Virus record (IMG/VR): IMGVR_UViG_2565956631_000014
Coordinates: 1 to 23,166 of that record
DNA: 23,166 bases
Reading direction: 5' to 3' (one strand)
Origin: a virus
Taxonomy: Duplodnaviria; Heunggongvirae; Uroviricota; Caudoviricetes
Position numbers and translations under genes: made by a program. Numbering within the stretch: position 1 is the stretch's first letter; each line of letters starts with the position of its first letter. The notes below the pieces were generated by a model that was not told the origin of the DNA, did no database searches, and saw only the letters and a program-made list of their open reading frames with translations. This document shows, piece after piece, positions 1,140 through 21,308 of the stretch.

Positions 1140-1427
1140 ATGACTGAACAAGAAATGCCGAGATACCAGTGCCACAAAAAAGTTCGCGCCCTGAAGATTG
1201 GCTCTATAGAACATAAGCCAAACCCAGATCAGTCTGGTAAGACTGGCTCTTCTAGTTATGGGGCAATTATTCATCCGGATGATAAGAAATACGCAGCATT
1301 TGATGTTAGCGCGGAATATATCTGTAAGCACCTACCAATGCCTGGAGGCTATTACGTTGTCTATGAGGATGGATATGAATCATATTCTCCTGCTGAGGTA
1401 TTTGAGTCTGGATGTTCAAAATTATAG
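1140..1427 (+). CDS. hypothetical phage protein (95 aa)
   Basis: ORF starting 4 nt after the previous stop (translationally coupled); codon usage like neighbours. No recognisable domain. Confidence 0.5.
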   Translation: MTEQEMPRYQCHKKVRALKIGSIEHKPNPDQSGKTGSSSYGAIIHPDDKKYAAFDVSAEYICKHLPMPGGYYVVYEDGYESYSPAEVFESGCSKL

Positions 1428-1436
1428 GAATCCTCT

Positions 1437-1616
1437 ATGACAAGCGTCGTTGATCTTGGTAAGGAGAAGAAATTCCCAATTACTCAAGAGCTATACGAGA
1501 GGCTGGAAAGCGTCATTCATGATTACGATGGTGAAATCAGTTTATGCGAGGCGATTGGCACACTTGAATTGCTGAAGCAGTCACTGATTGAAAGCGCGAA
1601 AGAGTCCTTAACCTGA
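1437..1616 (+). CDS. hypothetical small protein (59 aa)
   Basis: Not in the ORF track (under 60 aa). Read by hand: ATG 1437 preceded by AGGAA, open to TGA 1614..1616, fills the gap before the small terminase gene. Confidence 0.3.
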   Translation: MTSVVDLGKEKKFPITQELYERLESVIHDYDGEISLCEAIGTLELLKQSLIESAKESLT

Positions 1617-1639
1617 AATAACAACTAAGTGAGATGAAT

Positions 1640-2062
1640 ATGGCGACTGAACCAAAAGCTGGTCGCCCCTCTGATTATATGCCGGAGGTGGCTGACGATA
1701 TCTGCTCGTTGCTTTCTTCTGGCGAAAGTTTGCTGAAAGTATGTAAGCGTCCTGGTATGCCGGATAAGTCCACTGTTTTCCGCTGGTTGGCAAAGCATGA
1801 GGATTTTCGCGACAAGTACGCGAAGGCAACTGAGGCACGAGCTGATTCTATTTTCGAAGAGATATTCGAAATTGCTGACAATGCGATTCCAGATGCTGCT
1901 GAGGTGGCAAAGGCAAGACTTCGCGTTGATACCCGCAAATGGGCGCTGGCCCGAATGAATCCCCGTAAGTATGGCGACAAGGTAACTAACGAGCTTGTCG
2001 GTAAGGACGGCGGCGCAATCCAGATTGAAACATCACCGATGAGCACTCTATTCGGAAAATGA
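1640..2062 (+). CDS. terminase small subunit (Sf6 gp1-type)
   Basis: 140 aa from ATG 1640 (track ORF begins two codons earlier at 1634). Stop overlaps the large-terminase start as ATGA. Sequence (GRPSDYMPEVADDI, KARLRVDTRKWALARMNPRKYGDK) matches my recollection of the Sf6 small terminase; sits immediately 5' of TerL. Confidence 0.75.
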   Translation: MATEPKAGRPSDYMPEVADDICSLLSSGESLLKVCKRPGMPDKSTVFRWLAKHEDFRDKYAKATEARADSIFEEIFEIADNAIPDAAEVAKARLRVDTRKWALARMNPRKYGDKVTNELVGKDGGAIQIETSPMSTLFGK

Positions 2063-3471
2063 CCTCGATTAATCCTATCTTTGAACCGTTCATTGAGGCG
2101 CATCGCTACAAAGTCGCCAAAGGCGGTCGAGGTAGCGGTAAGTCATGGGCAATTGCGAGGCTGCTTGTTGAAGCGGCGCGTCGGCAGCCTGTGCGTATTC
2201 TCTGCGCTCGTGAACTGCAAAACAGTATCAGCGATTCGGTAATCCGGTTGCTTGAAGATACCATCGAGCGTGAAGGGTATTCGGCTGAGTTTGAAATTCA
2301 GCGTTCAATGATTCGTCATCTCGGATCGAATGCTGAGTTCATGTTCTACGGCATCAAAAACAACCCGACGAAGATTAAATCGCTCGAAGGCATTGATATC
2401 TGCTGGGTGGAAGAAGCGGAAGCGGTAACGAAGGAATCATGGGATATCCTGATACCAACCATCCGTAAGCCGTTCTCTGAAATATGGGTGAGCTTTAACC
2501 CGAAAAACATCCTCGACGATACCTATCAGCGATTCGTCGTAAACCCTCCTGATGATATTTGTCTGCTGACGGTGAACTACACCGACAACCCGCACTTTCC
2601 TGAAGTTCTCCGTCTGGAGATGGAAGAGTGTAAACGCAGAAATCCGACCCTGTATCGTCACATCTGGCTTGGTGAGCCAGTGAGCGCAAGTGATATGGCA
2701 ATCATCAAACGTGAATGGCTTGAAGCTGCTACCGATGCGCACAAGAAACTCGGATGGAAAGCGAAAGGCGCGGTTGTTTCTGCGCATGACCCATCAGACA
2801 CAGGGCCAGATGCTAAAGGTTACGCATCGCGTCACGGTTCGGTAGTTAAGCGCATTGCCGAAGGCCTGCTGATGGACATCAACGAGGGCGCTGACTGGGC
2901 TACTTCTCTGGCGATTGAAGACGGCGCTGACCACTACTTGTGGGATGGTGATGGTGTTGGTGCAGGTCTACGCAGACAGACAACGGAAGCGTTCTCCGGT
3001 AAGAAAATCACCGCCACGATGTTCAAGGGCAGCGAATCGCCATTCGATGAGGATGCGCCTTATCAGGCCGGAGCATGGGCTGATGAAGTCGTGCAGGGCG
3101 ACAACGTTCGCACTATTGGCGATGTATTCCGCAATAAGCGAGCGCAATTCTATTACGCGCTGGCTGACAGGCTGTATCTGACATATCGGGCGGTTGTTCA
3201 CGGTGAGTATGCAGACCCCGACGACATGCTGAGTTTCGACAAAGAAGCGATAGGCGAGAAGATGCTGGAGAAGCTGTTTGCAGAACTGACGCAGATTCAG
3301 CGCAAATTCAATAACAACGGGAAGCTTGAGCTAATGACTAAGGTCGAAATGAAGCAGAAGCTCGGTATTCCATCTCCTAACCTGGCTGATGCGTTGATGA
3401 TGTGTATGCATTGCCCGGCATTGGCCCGCGAAGAAACAGAAATATACGTTCCCTCATCCTCCGGTTGGTAA
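2059..3471 (+). CDS. terminase large subunit (ATPase/nuclease)
   Basis: 470 aa; N-terminal Walker A-like KGGRGSGKS; located between small terminase and portal; length equals Sf6 gp2 as I recall it. Confidence 0.9.
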   Translation: MTSINPIFEPFIEAHRYKVAKGGRGSGKSWAIARLLVEAARRQPVRILCARELQNSISDSVIRLLEDTIEREGYSAEFEIQRSMIRHLGSNAEFMFYGIKNNPTKIKSLEGIDICWVEEAEAVTKESWDILIPTIRKPFSEIWVSFNPKNILDDTYQRFVVNPPDDICLLTVNYTDNPHFPEVLRLEMEECKRRNPTLYRHIWLGEPVSASDMAIIKREWLEAATDAHKKLGWKAKGAVVSAHDPSDTGPDAKGYASRHGSVVKRIAEGLLMDINEGADWATSLAIEDGADHYLWDGDGVGAGLRRQTTEAFSGKKITATMFKGSESPFDEDAPYQAGAWADEVVQGDNVRTIGDVFRNKRAQFYYALADRLYLTYRAVVHGEYADPDDMLSFDKEAIGEKMLEKLFAELTQIQRKFNNNGKLELMTKVEMKQKLGIPSPNLADALMMCMHCPALAREETEIYVPSSSGW

Positions 3472-12008: not shown

Positions 12009-13394
12009 ATGGCTACGTGGCAACAGGGTATTAATTCTGGTGGTTTTCTGGCTGGCATCGGTACGCAAAATGAGAATGCGCCAAAGGCAAGCGACATTAA
12101 CGCAACGCTTGGTCTGATCCGCGAAAACAATGAACTGGCTCGCTCAGGTGCAAATAACGTTGGTCTGACCGCGTTACGTGGTCTGGCTGGAGTTGCTGAT
12201 ATTTACAATCAGGAACAGCAACAGAAAGCGATTAGTGCGTTCAATAAGGTTCACGCTGATGCATGGGCTTCTGGTGATCCATCGGGACTATTTAAGTTTG
12301 CCCAGGAAAATCCAGCGTTTGTTGCACAGGCACAACAGGCGTTTTCCGGTCTTAATGAGCAGCAACGCAACGATATGGGCGATTTAGCCATGAGGGCTAA
12401 CGTCGCTCTTTCTCAGGGACCGGAAGCCTACAGTAAATTCATTACTGACAACAAGGACAGGTTAAATCGCGTTGGCGCTAATGCTGACTGGATGATTCAG
12501 ACAGGTATTCAGAATCCAGAGCAGCTATCACACATGCTGACTACTATGTCTCTCGGTGCGCTTGGACCAGAAAAGGCGTTTGCTGTTCAGGATAAGATGG
12601 TTGGTCGCCAGCAGGAGCAGCAAAGAATTAACGAAACCATTCGCAATAATGACATGACGAATGCGAGGGCTATTAGGGGGCAAAACCTTTCCTATCAGTC
12701 TGCAATGACCGGACACGGACTTGCAGCAGAAAGACTGGCACTTGATAAGCAGAAATTCGGTTTTGAAGTACAACAGGCACAAAAAAAGGCCGAGGAACTT
12801 ATTAATGCAGCGCCAAAATTATCAGTGAACATGGAAAAGGCTATAGAAAAATCAGCAGGTGATGCGGCAGCTAGTCGTAATGCTGCCGATTCAATGACAA
12901 CGCTCGCTGACACGCTGGAGAAGGAGAAGCCAACTCCTGGTTTGTTCGGTAACGCTGAAAATATGTTCTCTAAGCTTACGGGGCAAGATAACTACCTCCG
13001 AGATATGCGGATTAGATTCAACCAACTAGCCAATGCGCAGGCAACCAAGCTTCTCCCTCCCGGCCCTGCATCAGATAAGGATATTGAGTTTGCAAGGAAA
13101 GGCATTCCAAGCGAAACGGATAATCCAATGGTCATGGCTCGATGGTTAAGGGGTATGGCAAAAATGGAAAGTAATAACGCGAAGTTCAACGAGTTTAAGT
13201 CAGAGTGGATGAGTGCAAATGGCAGCCCAGGACAATCTGATCGCAACCGAAACATCATGGGGATGGATGTTAAGAAGGGTGAGTCATTGAACTCTGCGGC
13301 AAAACGTTTTCTTTCCTCAAGTTATGGCGATAGCCAACCTCAACAGCAATTGTCCGATGACGAATTAATTAGCAAATATCTCGGAGAGCAGTAA
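12009..13394 (+). CDS. ejection protein, P22 gp20-like
   Basis: 461 aa, second gene of the ejection-protein triplet; size close to P22 gp20. Confidence 0.65.
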
Positions 13395-15208
13395 TGGCCT
13401 ATAGTCGTGAACAGTTGATGACGGCGTTAAGGAATGCTGATGCTGCCGGCGATACTGAGGGAGCACGTCGCATTGCTCAGATGCTGTCTTCTGGTGATCA
13501 ATCCACTCAAAACCAATCGCAGCCAGAAGAACAATCTCTGGTGGGAAAAGCTACTGACTGGCTCACTGGTGGTCAAAGTGCAGGGCAAATTGCAGAACAG
13601 GCTGGTCGTGGTCTGGTAAACATACCATTTGACGTATTGCAGGGCGGCGCAAGTCTGATTAATGCAATCAGTCAGGGGCTTGGTGGACCCAAGGTTTTGG
13701 ATGATGTTTATCGTCCAGTAGACAGACCGACAGACCCATACGCACAAGCCGGTGAAACAATTGGTGGGTATTTAGTTCCAGGAGTTGGAACGGCAGGAAG
13801 CATGGCTATTGGATCACTGGCAGAGGCCGCAAATCAGAAAGGCGATTTCGCACAAAATGCAGCTAAAAATGCCGGAGTTAACCTTGCCGCTCAAGGTGTT
13901 CTTTCCGCAGCAGCAAAGGGAATAGGGCGTGGAATAACGGCTATAAAAGGTGATATTGCGCCAGAAGTGGCGAAGAAAATTGCCACATCAGAATCGATGG
14001 GCGTGACACCAATGACATCTGATGTTATCCCGCCGAAAAATGCTTTCACTCGCGGCCTTACTCAGGATGCCGAGGGGGCTTTGCTCGGGACAGGATCAAA
14101 GCGAGCCGAGCAGTATGCAAAAAGAAGTCAGCTAGTTAAAAAACAGCTTGAGAAATATGGCGAATATAGCCCATCAGTTGTTGTTGACGATCTGTATGGT
14201 TCTCTGAAGTCAAGGAAGGATTCAGCCGGAAGCGTTATTGAAGACATTACAACCAAAATGGGAGACGCACCTGTTGACACATCAAAATCAATTAAGGTTA
14301 TCGACAACGTACTTACCAGAGCTAACAGGCTTGGGAAAGTGGCAAATAAGGATTTGATTCGCGGGTTATCCGATTTGCGAGAAGAACTTGCTAAACCAGA
14401 TATAGATTTTGGTCTATTGAGAGAGTTACGGTCAGCCTTGAGGGAAAGTATTCAGGGAGATGCCATGGTTTTTCCCAATAGCGCGAAAGCTGCAACTGAT
14501 GCCGTGGAGAGGGCAATGGGTGCAGATTTGAGGAATAACGCAGCACGGTATTTGGGGGCTGGAGAGGCCGCCAGATACGTTAAAGCAAACTCTGACTACT
14601 CCAGCGTCTTCAATAAGGTTCTCAATAAAAGGATTGCGAATAATCTCAACAAAGCTAAAAAAGAGTTTACTCCAGAGCTAATAAACAGCGTTGTATTCAG
14701 CAGAAAACCATCAGATATTAAGAGGATATGGCCTGCTCTTAGTGAAGATGGAAAGAACGCTATGCGTGCTGCTTATATCAGCAAGATTGCAGAAAAAGCA
14801 GGAGACTCGCCAACAAAATTTCTTACCGAGTTAAATAAGTTGAAGTCGCAATCTGACGGTCAGATCTATAACACGATATTCAGTGGGAGACACATGAAAG
14901 AGCTTGATGCTCTTCATGAAGTTCTACAGCAAACAGCAAGGTCGGACACCGCAAATGTGGTAACACAGACGGGGCAATCACAAGCCAACAGGATAAGGAC
15001 GATTGGCGCAACTGCGACTCTTGGGGCAACACTGGCGCTTGAATCTGGTTTCGGTGCAATGATGCGCCTGTATGAGTCCAAAGCAACGAGGAATGCGCTC
15101 TTACGTCTGGCAAATACTAAAGCTGGAACGCCAGCCTATGAAAGAGCGCTGAATAACGCCGCAAATGCCATCAGACCAATACTTGCCAATGATGCAACTG
15201 ATCGCTAA
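13394..15208 (+). CDS. ejection protein, P22 gp16-like
   Basis: 604 aa, start overlaps previous stop (TAATG); size close to P22 gp16. Confidence 0.65.
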
Positions 15209-15229
15209 TGGTTGATGTCATGGATGTTG

Positions 15230-15868
15230 TTAATTGCGAATGGAATCGCGGAACTCTTTACTTGATAGAAAAGGATCTGTTCTCCTTAACTCATCATAGT
15301 TTTTATTAAACTTTCTTGCTTCACCAGGGTATCTGTTGAACAAAACATTGCAGAAAAAAGAGAGCAATAACTCACATATAAATGCTAATATCCTGAAAAA
15401 TAAAGGTATAAAAAGAAGGAAAGGTTCATTGAAGTCTCTATTCCAAACAAAATAGACAATCATCCCGACATACCAAATTGATATCCCTATACTGATGATT
15501 GTTCCAACAGAGGTAACTACGATCCCGATTAAGTCGGACAGTCTGTTTGCCAGTAACTCATTTGAGTATCTTGCAATCATATACCGCCAACATTTTGCAA
15601 TATCATCCTGATCTGTAGAGTCTTCTGGAATGGCTAGGCTTCTACATATTGAAGCAGCTCTTTTTTTCTCAACTCTTTTTGAGAGCCATCCATTAAAGAG
15701 ATACATCAACACCTGCGTTGCTATTCCTGCACCAAGTGATATCAAAGACATCCCCAAAAATCGCCATCCTGGAGATAGTGACTGGTACTGCCAAACAAAA
15801 AAAATTAAAAAACCCAATGAGCCTATGACATAGGCTGATGTATCGCTATATATATCTATTTTTTTCAT
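15230..15868 (-). CDS. multi-pass inner-membrane protein at the sieA position (candidate superinfection-exclusion protein)
   Basis: 212 aa from the internal ATG at 15868, which has AAGGAG 9 nt upstream (track ORF starts 11 codons earlier). Four to five hydrophobic helices (e.g. YVIGSLGFLIFFVWQY, LIGIVVTSVGTIISIGISIWYVGMIVYFVW) with charged loops. Visibly AT-rich relative to flanking structural genes. Convergent with the gp16-like gene. Confidence 0.6.
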   Translation of the reverse strand: MKKIDIYSDTSAYVIGSLGFLIFFVWQYQSLSPGWRFLGMSLISLGAGIATQVLMYLFNGWLSKRVEKKRAASICRSLAIPEDSTDQDDIAKCWRYMIARYSNELLANRLSDLIGIVVTSVGTIISIGISIWYVGMIVYFVWNRDFNEPFLLFIPLFFRILAFICELLLSFFCNVLFNRYPGEARKFNKNYDELRRTDPFLSSKEFRDSIRN

Positions 15869-15918
15869 TGAGTAGCCACTCCTTAGTTTTGAGCAGAACA
15901 CCGGATGATAATGTTTTG

Positions 15919-16170
15919 TTATGTGTCTTTTGGGATTCTATCCAGTAACTCGTTGGAAATTTTATCAAGTAAAGATTTTATTTGTTTAAGATCTAATGAT
16001 TTGTCTACTGATGAGACGTCAGATGATAACGCATCCTCAAGAATTTGAACTATCTCTGAGTTCATAGATCGACCGTTTCGTTTAGCCCTTTCCGCAATAG
16101 CACTACGCATGCCGTCAGGCATTCTAACCGTAAATCTTTCTATGAAATTTGATTCGTCTTTTTCTGACAT
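15919..16170 (-). CDS. mnt: Mnt-like ribbon-helix-helix repressor
   Basis: 83 aa from ATG 16170 (track ORF has a 16-codon upstream extension). N-terminal RHH motif FTVRMPDGMRSAIAERAKRNGRSMNSEIVQILEDAL resembles P22 Mnt (FNFRMPMEVREKLKFRAEANGRSMNSELLQIVQDAL); C-terminal helical tail. Divergent from the arc-like gene. Confidence 0.7.
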   Translation of the reverse strand: MSEKDESNFIERFTVRMPDGMRSAIAERAKRNGRSMNSEIVQILEDALSSDVSSVDKSLDLKQIKSLLDKISNELLDRIPKDT

Positions 16171-16219
16171 TTTCTTATTCGCAAGGCATATGAGCAATAA
16201 AAAACACAGTAGCATCATA

Positions 16220-16274
16220 TTGACATTATGAGCAATGGCATCATAATGGTGTCATGACATCATGGTGATGTCAT
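16220..16274 (+). promoter_or_regulatory. sigma-70-like promoter plus 21-bp palindromic operator in the mnt/arc divergent region
   Basis: Seen directly: TTGACA at 16220..16225, 16-nt spacer, CATAAT at 16242..16247, oriented toward arc. Palindrome ATGACATCA-tgg-TGATGTCAT at 16254..16274 lies between the -10 and the arc start. TGACATTATGA-like motifs repeat at 16221 and 16269. Confidence 0.55.
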
Positions 16275-16290
16275 TATGACGGAGATATTG

Positions 16291-16467
16291 ATGATGAGCG
16301 ATGTTCTTTACAGTGGTCGTAAAAGTCAGAGTTTCCAGCTTCGTTTGCCAGCGCGAATGAAGGAGGAGATCAGACGCGTAGCTGAAATGGATGGAATTTC
16401 TATCAACTCTGCGATTGTGCAGCGACTGGCTAAAAGCCTGAGAGAGGAAAGAGCTAATGCCCAGTAA
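16291..16467 (+). CDS. arc: Arc-like ribbon-helix-helix repressor
   Basis: 58 aa from ATG 16291 (GGAG 6 nt upstream; alternative ATG 16276). RHH signature FQLRLPARMKEEIRRVAEMDGISINSAIVQRL is comparable to P22 Arc (FNLRWPREVLDLVRKVAEENGRSVNSEIYQRV). Confidence 0.7.
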   Translation: MMSDVLYSGRKSQSFQLRLPARMKEEIRRVAEMDGISINSAIVQRLAKSLREERANAQ

Positions 16468-16540
16468 AAATAGTGAAGCCCGGAAGTGCGCGAACACAAA
16501 CCGGGCCTCTATGTCAGTAACCGTACTCAAGGAAACTAAC

Positions 16541-17179
16541 ATGAATATTGTAGCAAAATCAGATTATAACTTCCAAGGATTCACTTTTAACCCTGTAACA
16601 GAGGGCGGGTCTATCTGGTTTACCTCCACCGAACTAGCTAAGGCTCTCGGCTATAAAAAAACTGATGCCATCAGCCAAATTTATGCCCGTAATGCTGACG
16701 AATTTTCCGACTCAATGTCATTGACCCTCAATATGAAGGTCAACGGAATAAACAATAGCTTACGTAACAAATCGGTCAGAGTTTACTCACTCCGAGGCGC
16801 TCACTTGGTGGCGATGTTTGCTTCTACGCCCAAGGCCAAAGAGTTCCGCCGCTGGGTGCTGGATATTTTGGATCGGCAGGCAGAATGCTCACCGATTGCA
16901 AAACAGTTTACTGACGAAGAACTGGTTAATCTCTGCTACTTACAATTGTGGATGGAGAAGAGTCAACAAATGTGCAAACACATCTACCCTGGAATGAAGC
17001 AAATTGGTTCTGAGCTTTCAGGAAAGATTTACGATATTGCATATGAGACTCGCTACATGTCAGAAGAAACCAAGAAATCGCTTCTTCGTGAAATGAAGAA
17101 TCTTGATCCCAACAATTTTGTCGTAAAGAACGCTCAGCCAATGCTGGCAAAACTTCGCGGCGAGGAATGGATTCATTGA
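16541..17179 (+). CDS. antirepressor-like protein with Bro-N-type N-terminal domain
   Basis: 212 aa from ATG 16541 (AAGGAA SD; track ORF starts 28 codons earlier). Bro-N-like motifs: GSIWFTSTELAKALGY, VRVYSLRGAHLVAMFASTPKAKEFRRWV. Sits where ant lies in P22 immI. Confidence 0.6.
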   Translation: MNIVAKSDYNFQGFTFNPVTEGGSIWFTSTELAKALGYKKTDAISQIYARNADEFSDSMSLTLNMKVNGINNSLRNKSVRVYSLRGAHLVAMFASTPKAKEFRRWVLDILDRQAECSPIAKQFTDEELVNLCYLQLWMEKSQQMCKHIYPGMKQIGSELSGKIYDIAYETRYMSEETKKSLLREMKNLDPNNFVVKNAQPMLAKLRGEEWIH

Positions 17180-17266
17180 TTGGCGCACAGGACGGCGCAA
17201 AAGAAAACCGCCAGTGTGCTGCTGGCGGCCTATGTCACACCCTTACTACCACATAAGGAATGCCTA

Positions 17267-17995
17267 ATGACTTTTAAGAATGTAGCAAACATCGGATCCG
17301 TTGTCACGGATAAAACCATTGATAGCCAGTACCTGTTAGAGATGGTCAATCATGCTCGTAGACAGTGCGGGGAAAAAGAAGTCCGAAATAACGACTTTAT
17401 TGCACGCATTAAGGATGAACTTGAAGGTGAGCACTACGAAATTTTCGTAGTTCAAAAATCAAACAAGACAACTTCTGAAAAAGTTGTTATGTCAATTAAG
17501 CAAGCCCTTCGAGTGGCTGCTCGTGAATCTAAAGCTGTTCGCCGCTCACTTGTAGACCAACTTGAAAGTATGCAAGAAGCGCACATTAAAAGCGGTAAAT
17601 CGTCGAGTGGACTTGTTGAGTATCGCCAGGCGCGAACATTGAAAATGACGGTTGAAGCTGTTACCAATCTGTTCGATTTGATGCCAAATCTTGCGCCGGA
17701 AGCAAAGCAGACTGCGGCAGCAAGCATAATCAACCCGCTCGTTGGTTTTAATGCAATACCTCTTCCGGCAATAGAAGAGCATTACTACTCAGCAGGGGAG
17801 GTTGCAGAGCAGCTTGGAGTAACGGCCAACAAGATTGGTCGCATTGCTAACGCAAACAACCTCAAAACTGAGCAGTACGGGAAGTTCTTCTTGGATAAAT
17901 CTGCGCATTCAAGCAAACAGGTGGAAGCATTCCGCTACAATGCGGAGGGTGTTAAAGCACTACAACACCTGATTCATGGGAGCAATGTTGCATAA
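17267..17995 (+). CDS. antirepressor-like protein with KilAC/ANT-type C-terminal domain
   Basis: 242 aa from ATG 17267 (AAGGAA SD; track ORF starts at 17180). C-terminal YYSAGEVAEQLGVTANKIGRIANANNL fits the KilAC/ANT pattern found in the C-terminal half of P22 Ant; N-terminus is Rha-like. Confidence 0.5.
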   Translation: MTFKNVANIGSVVTDKTIDSQYLLEMVNHARRQCGEKEVRNNDFIARIKDELEGEHYEIFVVQKSNKTTSEKVVMSIKQALRVAARESKAVRRSLVDQLESMQEAHIKSGKSSSGLVEYRQARTLKMTVEAVTNLFDLMPNLAPEAKQTAAASIINPLVGFNAIPLPAIEEHYYSAGEVAEQLGVTANKIGRIANANNLKTEQYGKFFLDKSAHSSKQVEAFRYNAEGVKALQHLIHGSNVA

Positions 17996-18216
17996 TGGCA
18001 AAGAAAAGATATGGCATTATGCCGCCAAGAATCAAAGGAAGAGCCAGGGTAAAAGGAGATGCTGGAAGGTATCACATTCTTGGAGTTCTGTGGCATGAGA
18101 GAGCTTTAATTTTAAGTAGACCTCATGGGTACATTGAAAAGGTATCTATAGATAGAGTAGAGATTCTTCCCCTTACACCTGAAGAAGAAGAAACTTACGG
18201 ACTTTTTGATAACTAA
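17995..18216 (+). CDS. hypothetical small basic protein (73 aa)
   Basis: Start overlaps the previous stop (TAATG); followed 8 nt later by a strong terminator. No recognisable motif. Confidence 0.45.
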   Translation: MAKKRYGIMPPRIKGRARVKGDAGRYHILGVLWHERALILSRPHGYIEKVSIDRVEILPLTPEEEETYGLFDN

Positions 18217-18223
18217 CCAATTA

Positions 18224-18252
18224 AACCCGCTTAATCGCGGGTTTTTTCTTTT
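18224..18252. terminator. Rho-independent terminator (strong for + strand, possibly bidirectional)
   Basis: Seen directly: AACCCGC-ttaatc-GCGGGTT hairpin followed by TTTTTTCTTTTC on the + strand. The hairpin also contains the stop codon of the minus-strand Mnt-like gene. Confidence 0.75.
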
Positions 18253-18488
18253 CTAAGAATATCAGCCGCAACTTCTTTTACTCGTTCCGAGATTAATGAG
18301 GCAAGCCTCTCTTCTTCATCACGATACCCGCTTACAGGTGATGGTTTGGAGAGCGATTCTTCCATCGTAGCCACAATTTCGGAATTGATAGACCTGTTAT
18401 TCATTTTTGCACGTTGCTTAATCTTGGCGTGCAACTCGTGCGTAAGCCTCAAGTGGAACTGCGCCTCATCGTATTTGCTGTACATCAT
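18231..18488 (-). CDS. mnt: Mnt-like ribbon-helix-helix repressor (second paralogue)
   Basis: 85 aa from the ATG ATG at 18488/18485 (GAGG 7 nt upstream); the 217-aa track ORF is an upstream read-through. Strong resemblance to P22 Mnt: FHLRLTHELHAKIKQRAKMNNRSINSEIVATMEESLSKPSPVSGYRDEEERLA versus FNFRMPMEVREKLKFRAEANGRSMNSELLQIVQDALSKPSPVTGYRNDAERLA. Confidence 0.7.
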   Translation of the reverse strand: MMYSKYDEAQFHLRLTHELHAKIKQRAKMNNRSINSEIVATMEESLSKPSPVSGYRDEEERLASLISERVKEVAADILRKEKTRD

Positions 18489-18620
18489 CAATGCCTCACC
18501 AAATGGGTGGAATGGCATCGTAAAACCTACTGTACAAATCAACAATCGTACCGTTTCGGTATGCAACAAATACCAACCGTAGCCATGCTGCGGCCATTCC
18601 TTGTATCTGGAGCAAATTAA

Positions 18621-21308
18621 ATGACAGACATTACAGCCAATGTTGTAGTGAGCATGCCTTCGCAACTCTTCACTATGGCGCGTTCTTTTAAAGCGGTTGC
18701 CAATGGCAAAATTTATATCGGTAAAATTGACACTGACCCGGTAAATCCTGAAAACCAGATTCAGGTTTATGTTGAGAATGAAGACGGTTCTCACGTTCCT
18801 GTTTCGCAACCAATCATCATTAACGCTGCTGGTTACCCGGTATATAACGGACAGATTGCCAAGTTCGTAACTGTGCAAGGCCACTCTATGGCTGTTTATG
18901 ATGCGTATGGTGCGCAGCAGTTCTATTTTCCTAATGTGCTGAAGTATGACCCTGATCAGTCATTGAAATATGTAGAAGGGGCATTGCTTGTTACTGACTT
19001 AGGTAATGGGACGTTTAAGAATAGTAGAAAAGACGTTGCCATTGGGGATAATCTAACAGGAACCAATTTTATTAGAATAAACGGCGGCGTCTATAAATGC
19101 ACTCCAGTTGCAACTGGAATTGTTACTGAGATCAAACATAGATACATTATCGCAGGCGGGGTTAAAAGCTACCTGTCTCATATTTCTAGGCATGTCAGTG
19201 GTACGCGTAGGCCGCTGAACTGGAAATTAGAATTCAGCATCATAGACGATGAGATTACCGCAGATCTTAAAGATCAGTATGGTTACACGACCATGGGATT
19301 TCAGGGGATTTACATAGACAGCAATGATGGAATGGTATACATCGGCTGGCAGACGCTAGACCCCGCATCGGTATGGGTTACGGTGCATGACTGGGTAACA
19401 GGAGCATTGGTAACACGTCTTCATTTTCCGAATAACGTTGGTGCACCAGAAGGCATCCACGTTTACCGAGTGGCAGGACAGCGTTACATCCTGCTGCCGT
19501 ACAGCCCATCTCGCACTATCAGAATTTACCCTATCGAAGATCCGCGTACGCTGGTTGATAAAACGCAGATTACAAACTTCACTGAATCAACACGCCTTGG
19601 AGTGCGATATCAGTTTAGTGGCTTTGGTAATACCCTGATATACGAAAATGCGGATATGGGTTGGCCGAAAATTTTTGATGTTGAGACAGGTGTATCCAAT
19701 ATCTTTAACACACTGGATATTAACAGCCTTATAGAAGGATCTTACAGTCCAATGGGGACTATTACGGTTGATGCAAATGTTGGAGGTCGCGGAGCCGGTA
19801 AACCAAAACGGCAGGGTGTCGCTCTTGGTTCTCAACGGATATTTGCTGGTATTGGTGCATCTACCACGGCGGGATCTGGAAATACTTTCGCAGGGTTGCA
19901 GGGTTATATTGAGTACAGCCTTAATGGTTCAGAATTAGGTCAGTACCTGCTGTCACCTGCAGATTTCAAAACATACTGGGATAGTTATTCAGGGAAGAGT
20001 GTTTACTCCACTGAAAATGAGGGGGTGCAGTCTTGTGATATTTCTGGCTCTGAGGAATTGTATCTTCTACAGTCTATTCGCTATGACAATGGGGGCGGAT
20101 CAAATTATAGGACTTTAAACATCATTCGCGCTAACTGTCCATCTAATGAACCTGGAACAGTAGACATGACTCCGCTATCCAATGCCTCATCACAGTTATT
20201 TAACCCTCGCGGAAGGGTGATTAACGCTGGCCGTCACCCTGTAAACCCGGCTGATGGTATTGCGCTATTTACATCGGCACAGGCTATTTGTGACTATTTG
20301 CGGAATACAGATGCAGGTAGATATGTGACATATCTTGAACAGGATATGCCACTGTTTGAAGGTGGGCCATCTGCGCCAGGACAGATGACGCTGCCAGCAT
20401 TCTGCCTATTGCAGATCGACTTCATCAACGGCGATACCTGGGAAATTACAGTTAATGGAACTAACAGGGCTAATAATTATACAGGAAGGATTTCCAAAAA
20501 CGGCGGGTACAACTCTTTTACTAAGGTGTCCTCCCGCAGCATGTCGATTCTCGGATCCCCTGGTCTGGTTGATGTATCAATTCGCTCACCTAACTCACTA
20601 AATCTTCCAGAATTTGCTGGAGACTGGTCTACTGGTGTAAGTATAGGAGCTGCAGGTGGGGTGACAAACTGGCAGCCAGAAGGAACAGGTAACGGAGCAT
20701 TATGGGAGTCAGGATATGCAAAAAACCGTGTGTTGCAGATATTCATGTCCACAACATCAAAACTGTTCTTCCGCTACGCAGACGATGCTATTCGCGCAGG
20801 TAACACAGGCTGGGCTGAGGCATGGTCGTCGCTGAACACGACCGTCGATTCAAGTGGTTTCATCAAAAAAGCCTCTCCGGTTGTGAAGATTTTCTCAGAC
20901 GGTAGTAGTGAAACAAATCGCGAATCAGATGGGGTAACCGTCACACGGCTGGCATTGGGTGAATATCTGATTGAGGGTTGCGTAGGTCTGAATGCAGATG
21001 CTTCATGGGGGGGGATTGATGGTGGATTTGAAATACCGCAGGACCGAAACAAGCAGCCGCTCATCTGGCTGGATTATGTTGTTAACCAAGATGGATCTGT
21101 GTTGGTGAAAACGTTTCACCGCACTCATGATAACTCGCCCGTTTTTGCACGTAACGACATCCCTGGTGTTTCGAACGGTGACCCGATCGACATTCCTGCT
21201 AATCAATTCGTTTCTGTGCGAGTACAGATGCCTGAGGATTCTGCATGGAATAAGCTTAAGGAACAACTAAATAAGGCTGAATTGATAGAAGATGATGTTG
21301 TGGAATAG
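18621..21308 (+). CDS. tailspike protein: P22 gp9-type head-binding N-terminus, uncharacterised receptor-binding C-terminal region
   Basis: 895 aa; GGAG SD. First ~115 aa ([43 protein letters not shown]...VLKYDPDQ) are near-identical to the P22-family tailspike head-binding domain. The remaining ~780 aa show no motif I recognise. Confidence 0.85.

Follow-up and report, generated by a model that had tools for sequence, protein, structure and literature searches.

Two probably independent genes, an ant-type gene and a Rha-like second gene, in the immunity-I cassette of an Escherichia coli P22-like prophage

Introduction

In the P22 lysogen, Mnt-type repressors keep the promoter Pant off, as is known from P22 genetics. 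The term "ant moron" was introduced by Villafane et al., who reported rapid flux, with ten types among sixteen genomes (PMC2629481). In Shiga toxin (Stx) phages, Roi was stated to be located downstream of Ant (Smith et al., PMC3430580), and Listeria AriS provides an example of module shuffling with separable activities (PMC9043618). In this study, we analyzed a 23,166-nucleotide (nt) stretch of viral DNA (Caudoviricetes; IMG/VR record IMGVR_UViG_2565956631_000014, positions 1 to 23,166), here called the window, and in it two tandem open reading frames (ORFs), ORF1 at 16541-17179 (212 amino acids, aa) and ORF2 at 17267-17995 (242 aa), which lie on the same strand with 87 nt between them. All coordinates are positions in this 23-kb window.

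Because a P22 gp16-type gene and a tailspike gene flank it, and because of its identity to sequences of E. coli UTAK-1 and phage JEP4, the locus is identified as immunity-I (immI), the "ant moron", of a P22-like E. coli prophage of Lederbergvirus type. The 3.5-kb region showed 98.9% identity to prophages of E. coli UTAK-1, OkiPb01711 and O111:H- 110512, and the Escherichia phage JEP4 (Lederbergvirus) was 94% identical over the part from ORF1 to mnt (window 16461-18633, query 1262-3434). The original prediction, made from the letters of the window, rightly placed two co-oriented tandem ORFs here and proposed that one antirepressor function was split over them, with a Bro-N protein followed by a KilAC-type protein. 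That proposal was not upheld, as ORF1 appears complete alone, ORF2 is unlike P22 Ant and no fusion of the two was found among the listed homologs. We consider it highly probable that ORF1 and ORF2 are two complete, independent genes in a conserved cassette and not one antirepressor cut in two.

Results

Two domains were recognized by Pfam in ORF1, namely Bro-N (PF02498) at aa 19-109 (nt 16595-16867; E 1.3e-10; 42.2 bits, cutoff 25.6) and P22_AR_C (PF10548) at aa 121-188 (nt 16901-17104; E 5.4e-14; 52.5 bits, cutoff 22.4), and the protein matched phrog_245, "anti-repressor Ant", at 6e-50. The Bro-N domain had been predicted correctly, whereas the C-terminal half, which had been described as unrecognized, carries P22_AR_C and aligned with residues 206-274 of P22 Ant at 30% identity (BLASTP, E 1e-9). 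Relative to this shared C domain, ORF1 ends within about 5 residues of the end of P22 Ant. When P22 Ant was scanned in the same way, Pfam returned P22_AR_N and P22_AR_C and neither Bro-N nor ANT/KilAC, so the picture of P22 Ant as a Bro-N plus KilAC protein, on which the proposed split was built, was mistaken. P22_AR_N (PF10547) was not found in ORF1 by Pfam, and Bro-N stands in its place; hhalign related Bro-N to P22_AR_N at 73%, over 35 columns only. A PDB sequence search with ORF1 returned designed helical repeats only. The 120 listed of 1,927 ORF1 homologs span 173-249 aa, and 118 of these 120 have Bro-N together with P22_AR_C, the other two having P22_AR_C only; a fusion to an ORF2-like part was found in none of the 120.

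The genetic context of ORF1 is that of P22 ant, after arc and under Pant, accompanied by mnt and a sar unit and lying between genes 16 and 9. From the arc stop codon to the first ORF1 codons, the sequence aligned with the P22 stretch between arc and ant; the GAAGCCC...GGGCTTC hairpin of the sar terminator and the ATGAAT start both lie within this alignment, and since this start aligns with P22, the 212-aa form of ORF1 was favored over the 240-aa start given in many records. On sequence grounds, ORF1 is best regarded as a complete Ant-type protein, an ant ortholog by position and by C-terminal domain, in which the N module has been exchanged (Bro-N for P22_AR_N).

Variation within the ORF1 coding region was observed in other genomes. 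About 50 complete E. coli genomes matched only the 3' 63% of ORF1 (nt 239-639, window 16779-17179), at 93-95% identity; in these genomes, the P22_AR_C part is hence the same but is preceded by different 5' sequence, and the recombination joint lies inside the Bro-N coding region. In E. coli O111:H- 110512 (NZ_AP019761.1 2505323-2510136), an insertion sequence (IS) of the IS3 family, IS1203, lies within the corresponding region, and the proteins annotated there are a "BRO-N domain-containing" one and, separately, a "P22AR C-terminal domain-containing" one, which would make this a true physical split of the ORF1 homolog by an IS element.

ORF2, the protein of the second slot, is preceded by its own ribosome-binding site (RBS; AAGGA, 17254-17258). 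In the protein, a helical linker joins the Rha-like N module (nt ~17306-17584) to the C module, a winged helix (nt ~17768-17977). It matched phrog_1726, "anti-repressor", end to end at 1.4e-100, and the top 120 of its 2,097 homologs are all 220-255 aa long. A Pfam scan of ORF2, whole and as halves, gave no match up to E 10, including to ANT/KilAC (PF03374) and Phage_pRha (PF09669); the ANT/KilAC positive controls (P7 Ant1, P7 KilA and Phi24B Roi) scored 4e-31 to 7e-33. No match was obtained in an NCBIfam search, and no similarity to P22 Ant was found. The PDB sequence search with the ORF2 profile gave spurious coiled-coil-like nsp8 matches only, and the database search with the C domain alone gave short fragments only.

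The N module has a clear relative in P7, as aa 14-106 of ORF2 matched P7 Ant1 112-207, the Ant2 N-terminal region, at 64% identity over 96 aa (E 2e-37), and the ANT/KilAC domain of P7 Ant1 (235-337) lies outside the stretch matched by ORF2. In profile comparison with hhalign, the N module matched Phage_pRha at 98.1% (E 8.6e-14, 88 columns) with a 21-sequence profile and at 58% (E 1e-4, 87 columns) with a strict 8-sequence pRha profile including HK022 and Phi24B Roi; every other N-module class, used as negative controls, remained below 2%. The Rha-like N terminus proposed for ORF2 was thus visible to profile-profile comparison and not to the Pfam hidden Markov model, and "Rha-like" is a reasonable term for it, at a level below Pfam detection.

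The KilAC-like domain that had been placed in the C-terminal half of ORF2 was not recovered: besides the empty Pfam scan, hhalign of the C module against KilAC gave 2.3-4.6%. AlphaFold (AF2) models were obtained for the full-length protein and for the C domain alone, with predicted local distance difference test (pLDDT) values of 72 and 84, respectively. In these models, the C module is built from a strand, then a helix-turn-helix, followed by a beta-hairpin and a helix. Foldseek searches of the PDB matched this fold to the winged helices of RacA, BldC, MerR and Tn916 Xis, with E ~0.08-0.6 and a template modeling (TM) score to the target of ~0.6. In BFVD, the matches were C-terminal parts of viral "antirepressor" proteins, the top one with E 5e-6 and TM 0.63. 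Viral proteins annotated as KilAC were marginal (E 0.02-0.04, TM 0.47-0.52) and stood among MerR, Xis and helix-turn-helix matches of similar rank, the likeness to MerR/excisionase-type winged helices being equally strong or more distinct. The modeled C module is consequently described here as a MerR/excisionase-type winged helix in the position of KilAC, not as a member of Pfam KilAC; it is possibly a very distant KilAC relative. An apparent hhalign likeness of the C module to Bro-N (90%) was traced to a pair of Bro-N sequences that were chimeric or truncated; it fell to 23% once these were removed and was discarded as unsupported.

In the exhaustive search of representative proteins, the N and C parts of ORF2 matched different proteins separately. 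The C part alone was found in 57 proteins, whose N-termini include Bro-N (16), Phage_pRha (13), KilA-N (10), ORF6N (8), AntA (5) and P22_AR_N (3), and the N part alone in 24 proteins, nine of which have an ANT/KilAC C-terminus. Since its two modules recur separately, ORF2 adds a further combination to the known network of module shuffling among phage regulators, a network shown for AriS-type proteins, with reference to Iyer et al. 2002, in PMC9043618. ORF1 and ORF2 are both products of this shuffling, in which N modules of the Bro-N, Rha, KilA-N, ORF6N and AntA types are combined with several C modules. As judged from its domains, ORF2 is a complete two-module protein of the broad antirepressor class and not the missing half of Ant. 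Among the fallback readings that accompanied the idea of a split function, a domain shuffle and two independent class members fit these data better, and a functional pair fits them less well, as discussed below.

A Stx-phage protein annotated as Roi is 62% identical to ORF2, and ORF2 was considered as a Roi homolog on this account. The identification was rejected, because genuine Roi of HK022 and Phi24B is a pRha plus KilAC protein, and comparison of ORF2 with either genuine Roi gave a BLASTP E of 0.19 or worse and 0.2% in hhalign. The labels "Roi", "KilA" and "Rha" on ORF2 relatives in public records are loose transfers. Fragments of ORF2 were also encountered elsewhere: 38-53 nt of the gene (window 17421-17461) occur with 95-100% identity at an unannotated spot in ~280 E. 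coli chromosomes. In E. coli 83972, what remains there is a degenerate ORF2-like N module with a broken frame (aa 49-88); on one side of it lies a TOPRIM/DUF927 primase gene and on the other lie DUF2824 and DNA-ejection genes, surroundings that look like a satellite or a degraded prophage.

If the two genes were instead the halves of a single ancestral ant broken by a nonsense mutation or a frameshift, they would form a pseudogene pair or a gene expressed by stop-codon read-through. The reading frame is compatible with this, as ORF1 and ORF2 share a frame in which only a single TGA and 29 sense codons lie between them (window 17177-17269). However, a stop-free run of 29 codons is expected by chance in ~25% of cases, and the gap between ant and the second gene measures 69-89 nt in related cassettes and occurs in all three phases, for which reason the shared frame was judged a coincidence. 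The gap of this locus also contains a conserved hairpin and a good ORF2 RBS. Moreover, the whole P22_AR_C domain is already present within ORF1, up to nearly the same end as in P22 Ant, and similarity to P22 Ant was not found in ORF2. None of the listed homologs, neither those of ORF1 nor the top 120 of ORF2, in the size ranges given above, reaches the size of an ORF1-ORF2 fusion (~480 aa), and the longest representative match, P0214 (467 aa), is an ORF6N-bearing, P1 Ant1-like protein and not an ORF1 fusion.

Each gene was also found without the other elsewhere, which speaks against a broken ant as well. Salmonella phage SPN3UB has ORF1 at 95% identity followed by an ORF6N protein unrelated to ORF2. 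In Klebsiella phage phiKp_30, ORF2 is located in the early region near abc2-like, ssb and exonuclease genes, and a trace of ORF1 remains upstream of it (L007 ~2390-2500), namely the final ~23 nt with the stop codon, along with the gap hairpin, which indicates that this ORF2 was captured from an ant-ORF2 cassette. Further ORF2 relatives without a nearby ant occur in early-left regions of Salmonella and in Stx phages. Complete domains, variable gap phase, the lack of a fusion among the listed homologs and these solo occurrences refute the split, pseudogene and read-through readings, and a broken ancestral ant is therefore regarded as extremely improbable. The frameshifted pseudogene pair that the original prediction had mentioned is likewise set aside by the gap phases, and the comparison of fused with split versions that it had suggested yielded no fused ORF1-ORF2 protein among the listed homologs.

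The neighborhoods of diverse ORF1 and ORF2 homologs, comprising about a dozen cassettes, were surveyed. All cassettes examined have the same order, with a repressor gene of Arc/Mnt type or S24 CI type, a 55-57-aa Arc-like gene, a Bro-N ant-type gene and a second gene of 228-263 aa, often followed by a small ORF. The ant-type gene scored P22_AR_C in most cassettes, the Morganella copies having Bro-N only, and the second-slot gene is ORF2-like, pRha-type or ORF6N-type, the second-slot proteins being themselves mosaic. The cassettes are situated in tail regions of siphoviruses (by DUF6246 and tape-measure genes), in baseplate regions of myoviruses and in P22-like late regions, and the cassette thus seems to be mobile and to move across phage morphotypes. 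Among complete E. coli genomes, 38 were counted with full-length ORF1, 76 with full-length ORF2 and 69 with the junction of the ORF1 3' end and the ORF2 5' end. The adjacency of ant and a second gene is a real, recurrent feature.

Such regular adjacency could mean that ORF1 and ORF2 form an obligate functional pair, either as a heteromeric antirepressor like P1 Ant1/Ant2 acting on C1 or with ORF2 targeting or activating ORF1. In every cassette examined, an ant-type gene is followed by a second-slot gene of the ORF2 class, and the junction is nearly as frequent in E. coli genomes as full-length ORF2 (69 versus 76). The N module of ORF2 is that of P1/P7 Ant2, which according to the P7 record acts in an Ant1/Ant2/C1 complex. 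A parallel order exists in the nin region of Phi24B, where a P22_AR_C Ant precedes a Rha-class protein; checking the Ant-Roi order of PMC3430580 in this phage gave an ORF6N plus P22_AR_C Ant and then a pRha plus KilAC Roi. In contrast, unrelated second-slot module combinations are swapped beside near-identical ant genes, as with the 95%-identical ant and the ORF6N gene of SPN3UB, and such free swapping is hard to reconcile with a specific ORF1-ORF2 partnership. The ant-less ORF2 relatives of the Salmonella early-left regions, phiKp_30 and the Stx phages, and P22 Ant, which by established P22 genetics works without such a partner, also argue against it. We therefore consider an obligate pair improbable. 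Co-regulated independent effectors appear to be the better reading of the sequences, and ORF1 and ORF2 are most simply two independent class members co-expressed from one operon.

Signals that may control both genes were found on the minus strand. In the ORF1-ORF2 gap, a minus-strand intrinsic terminator is located at 17205-17231, with a 10-pair stem including 6 GC pairs followed by TTTTCTTTT. The T-run of this hairpin is present on the minus strand only, so the hairpin should stop antisense transcription and not the ant transcript. It is kept in all cassettes examined, with an invariant T-run, freely variable loops and compensatory stems (CCGCCAG/CTGGCGG, CCGACAG/CTGTCGG and CCAACAG/CTGTTGG). 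RNAalifold on the MAFFT alignment undercounts this covariation, two sequences being one column off, and folds of each sequence and direct reading were used instead.

Opposite the start of ORF2, inside codons 5-14, there is an extended -10 promoter-like site on the minus strand (17279-17307; GTGACA-17 nt-TGcTACATT). Across nine cassettes that are 61-86% identical, the GACA of its -35 element, the 17-nt spacing, the TG and positions 1, 2 and 6 of the -10 element are invariant, and the spacer and the peptide encoded there vary (NVA, NLA, TLS and KIA). The site is conserved whether the second gene is ORF2-like, pRha-type or ORF6N-type. An N-terminal peptide, MQQSSST.VNVA (first ~13 codons), was found in common in the second-slot genes of L015 (pRha) and of L016, L018 and SPN3UB (L006), all three ORF6N. 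The coincidence of this shared 5' end with the predicted antisense promoter suggests a constraint at the level of DNA rather than of protein.

In the whole window, only three extended -10 sites (score >= 9 with TG) were found, with -35 starts at 15988, 16576 and 17307, against a background of 0.11 such sites per kb per strand over all the sequences analyzed. All three are on the minus strand and within immI, namely upstream of sieA, at the sar position of ORF1 and at the 5' end of ORF2. Applied to P22, the same scan recovered the annotated Psar, whose counterpart at this locus is the site in the first ORF1 codons. No such minus-strand site was present upstream of Phi24B roi or of an ant-less Salmonella ORF2 homolog.

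At ORF1, these elements outline a predicted sar-homologous antisense RNA (16468-16556, minus strand) that covers the RBS and start codon of ORF1 (fold -32.8 kcal/mol, z -5.2). The promoter of this unit lies in the first ORF1 codons, where minus-strand promoter-like sites occur at 16576-16547 (TG-extended) and 16590-16563, and its terminator lies in the arc-ORF1 gap. At ORF2, the promoter at 17307-17279 and the terminator at 17231-17205 would together give a second sar-like antisense RNA of ~70 nt, running from about 17272 to 17200 on the minus strand over the ORF2 start codon (17267) and RBS (17254-17258), with a predicted fold of -25.1 kcal/mol (z -2.6). We give this second antisense RNA about an even chance of being real.

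The two genes lie in an operon ordered Pant, arc, ORF1, ORF2, orf73 and terminator, with Mnt-type repressor genes on both sides. The Pant-like promoter (16220-16247, plus strand; TTGACA-16-CATAAT) has 11 of 12 consensus matches and is the top site in the region; it stands in front of arc, is overlapped by a divergent promoter-like site and aligns with the annotated Pant/Pmnt region of P22. The first gene of the operon encodes an arc-like repressor (16276-16467, plus strand; Pfam Arc, E 1.1e-11), annotated in UTAK-1 as an Arc-family DNA-binding protein. After ORF2 comes orf73 (17995-18216, plus strand; phrog_4977 at 1e-53 and no Pfam match), a small gene of 73 codons that accompanies ORF2 in UTAK-1 and JEP4 too. 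Because the ORF2 stop and the orf73 start overlap (TAATG), the two genes are probably translationally coupled. A bidirectional terminator-like hairpin at 18223-18244 (AAACCCGC-loop-GCGGGTTT followed by a T-run, with an A-run upstream) closes both the operon and the convergent mnt gene.

The mnt ortholog of the Arc family (18231-18518, minus strand; Pfam Arc 4.8e-14; phrog_795, with the P22 mnt label, at 4e-36) is convergent with the operon, adjoins the 895-aa tailspike gene and is annotated in JEP4 as "regulatory protein mnt". On the left, a further ribbon-helix-helix repressor gene of the Arc/Mnt family (15919-16218, minus strand; Pfam Arc PF03869, E 2.1e-17) occupies the P22 mnt position and is divergent from the arc-ant operon; its likely start gives an 83-aa product, and the UTAK-1 copy is marked partial by PGAP. 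This immI region hence has three Arc-family ribbon-helix-helix genes (15919-16218, 16276-16467 and 18231-18518) versus two in P22. The closer Mnt relative is the right gene (SKPSPV.GYR motif, phrog_795), the left gene being more distantly Arc/Mnt-like, and in JEP4 and some cassettes an S24 CI-type repressor takes the place of the left gene. Further upstream, a sieA-like superinfection-exclusion gene (15230-15901, minus strand; phrog_7745 SieA-like, E 1.9e-20), in the position of P22 sieA, forms the left border of the ant moron, with the extended -10 promoter-like site at 15988-15959 (minus strand) just upstream of it. The gp16-type DNA-transfer gene (13394-15208) lies upstream of the sieA-like gene.

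Discussion

Considering these results together with P22 genetics, a plausible course of events at this locus can be proposed. When Mnt repression fails, or upon infection, Pant would fire, and Arc, ORF1, ORF2 and orf73 would be expressed from one transcript. As P22 genetics suggests, ORF1 would bind the C2/CI-type prophage repressor non-covalently and lift repression, and Arc and the sar-type antisense RNA would limit ORF1 synthesis and shut it down again. There is no plus-strand terminator in the ORF1-ORF2 gap, and ORF2 should therefore be co-transcribed with ant, using its own RBS for translation. The predicted second antisense RNA may then gate ORF2 as ant is gated, a step read from the sequence only. 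ORF2 itself may act as a second effector with a target of its own, which could be a DNA site recognized by its winged helix or the repressor of a different resident prophage, as module sharing and the predicted antisense gate would suggest. A second antirepressor-type activity is thus the most likely of the roles considered for ORF2, and we give it slightly less than an even chance.

The fold of the C module also points in another direction, in which ORF2 would be a sequence-specific DNA-binding regulator riding in the ant operon, affecting lytic growth or the host response like Rha and Roi, or inhibiting SOS like AriS. The C module has the fold of a MerR/excisionase/RacA-type winged helix, and PMC9043618, citing Iyer et al. 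2002, presents the class of the Rha-like N module as proposed to bind DNA. HK022 Roi and other Rha-class proteins are also described, in PMC4587872 and PMC3430580, as DNA-binding proteins affecting lytic growth. The fold matches of ORF2 are weak, however (PDB E ~0.08), and genuine HK022 and Phi24B Roi, being pRha plus KilAC proteins, are not significantly similar to ORF2, so that the properties of Roi are not transferable. In addition, that ORF2 lies in the ant operon and is predicted to have a sar-type gate suggests that its product is as dangerous to lysogeny as Ant. A DNA-binding regulator that merely rides in the operon is accordingly the less probable role, and in our view rather unlikely.

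Several points weigh against the view of two independent effectors, each with an antisense gate. The function of ORF2 is taken from module sharing and fold alone, the full-length AF2 model is of only moderate quality (pLDDT 72), and the Rha-like assignment of the N module varies with profile depth (58% versus 98%). Repressor binding by ORF1 and ORF2 is only inferred, and the window is without the immC region of the prophage. The P22_AR_C-type Ant of Phi24B speeds induction only and leaves immunity unbroken (PMC3064807), so that the name "antirepressor" may overstate the role of ORF1. P22 and epsilon34 carry ant without a second-slot gene, so that Ant does not in general require the second gene to function. 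As for the antisense RNA, which is a prediction, an Rfam search (E <= 1, 15000-19000) gave no family match and no sar, and part of the -35 conservation could stem from a pair of codons for Val-Thr that is conserved where the Rha-like domain begins.

A broader hypothesis would be that a mobile Bro-N/P22_AR_C cassette always carries two effectors, each gated by a sar-type RNA, and that ORF2 is the second antirepressor-class effector, with exchangeable specificity, so that one Mnt/Arc operon releases two targets. We put this forward tentatively and think it doubtful in this full form.

The gene pair as such is ordinary, as it has already been sequenced and annotated in phage JEP4 and in dozens of E. 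coli genomes, and an analogue is known in the ant-roi genes of Stx phages. Because it arose from a mistaken picture of the P22 Ant domains and concerned a common gene pair, the claim of a split antirepressor carries little weight. More useful are the correction of the misleading labels "Rha", "KilA" and "Roi" on these proteins and the finding that a Rha/ORF6N-class second gene follows the ant-type gene in every cassette examined. Should the second sar-like RNA prove true, the P22 immI paradigm would grow from one antisense-gated effector to two, and second-slot proteins would be candidates for new repressor-targeting or prophage cross-talk factors.

Among known systems, Listeria AriS (AntA/Bro-N/pRha plus KilAC) follows the same principle as ORF2, an exchangeable N module joined to a C module of separate activity (PMC9043618); it differs in its C module and in its Gram-positive comK prophage context, and SOS inhibition is a feature of AriS. 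HK022 Roi and other Phage_pRha proteins resemble ORF2 in size (~240 aa), in the succession of a Rha-type N module, a helical linker and a DNA-binding-like C module, and in the register of the last N-module helix, whereas pairwise similarity to ORF2 is not significant and the C module of Roi is KilAC. With Ant1/Ant2 of P1 and P7, the locus shares the N-terminal module of Ant2, 64% identical to ORF2 14-106, and control by antisense RNA, c4 in P1/P7 and sar-type as predicted here; c4 and sar are unrelated RNAs with different mechanisms. P1/P7 Ant differs in having a KilAC C domain (Ant1 235-337) where ORF2 has another winged-helix C module.

The ant-roi genes of Phi24B are similar in arrangement, with a P22_AR_C Ant (225 aa), a 68-nt gap and a 242-aa Rha-class two-module protein. 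In contrast to the locus studied here, the N module of that Ant is ORF6N, Roi is a pRha plus ANT/KilAC protein unlike ORF2, the gap has a plus-strand terminator and is without the minus-strand promoter/terminator pair, and the genes lie in the early-right nin region and not in a late-operon moron. The closest system is immI of P22, which has the same site between gene 16/sieA and the tailspike gene, the same divergent Mnt-type repressor and Pant-arc-ant order, the same arc-ant gap with its sar terminator and start-codon context, and P22_AR_C in the ant product. The differences are that the N module of Ant is P22_AR_N in P22 and Bro-N here, that ant is followed by a terminator in P22 and by ORF2 and orf73 here, and that three ribbon-helix-helix genes stand here against two in P22, with a second antisense unit predicted. 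The regularity of the cassette, combined with the predicted duplication of antisense control, would represent a novel variation on the P22 immI paradigm.

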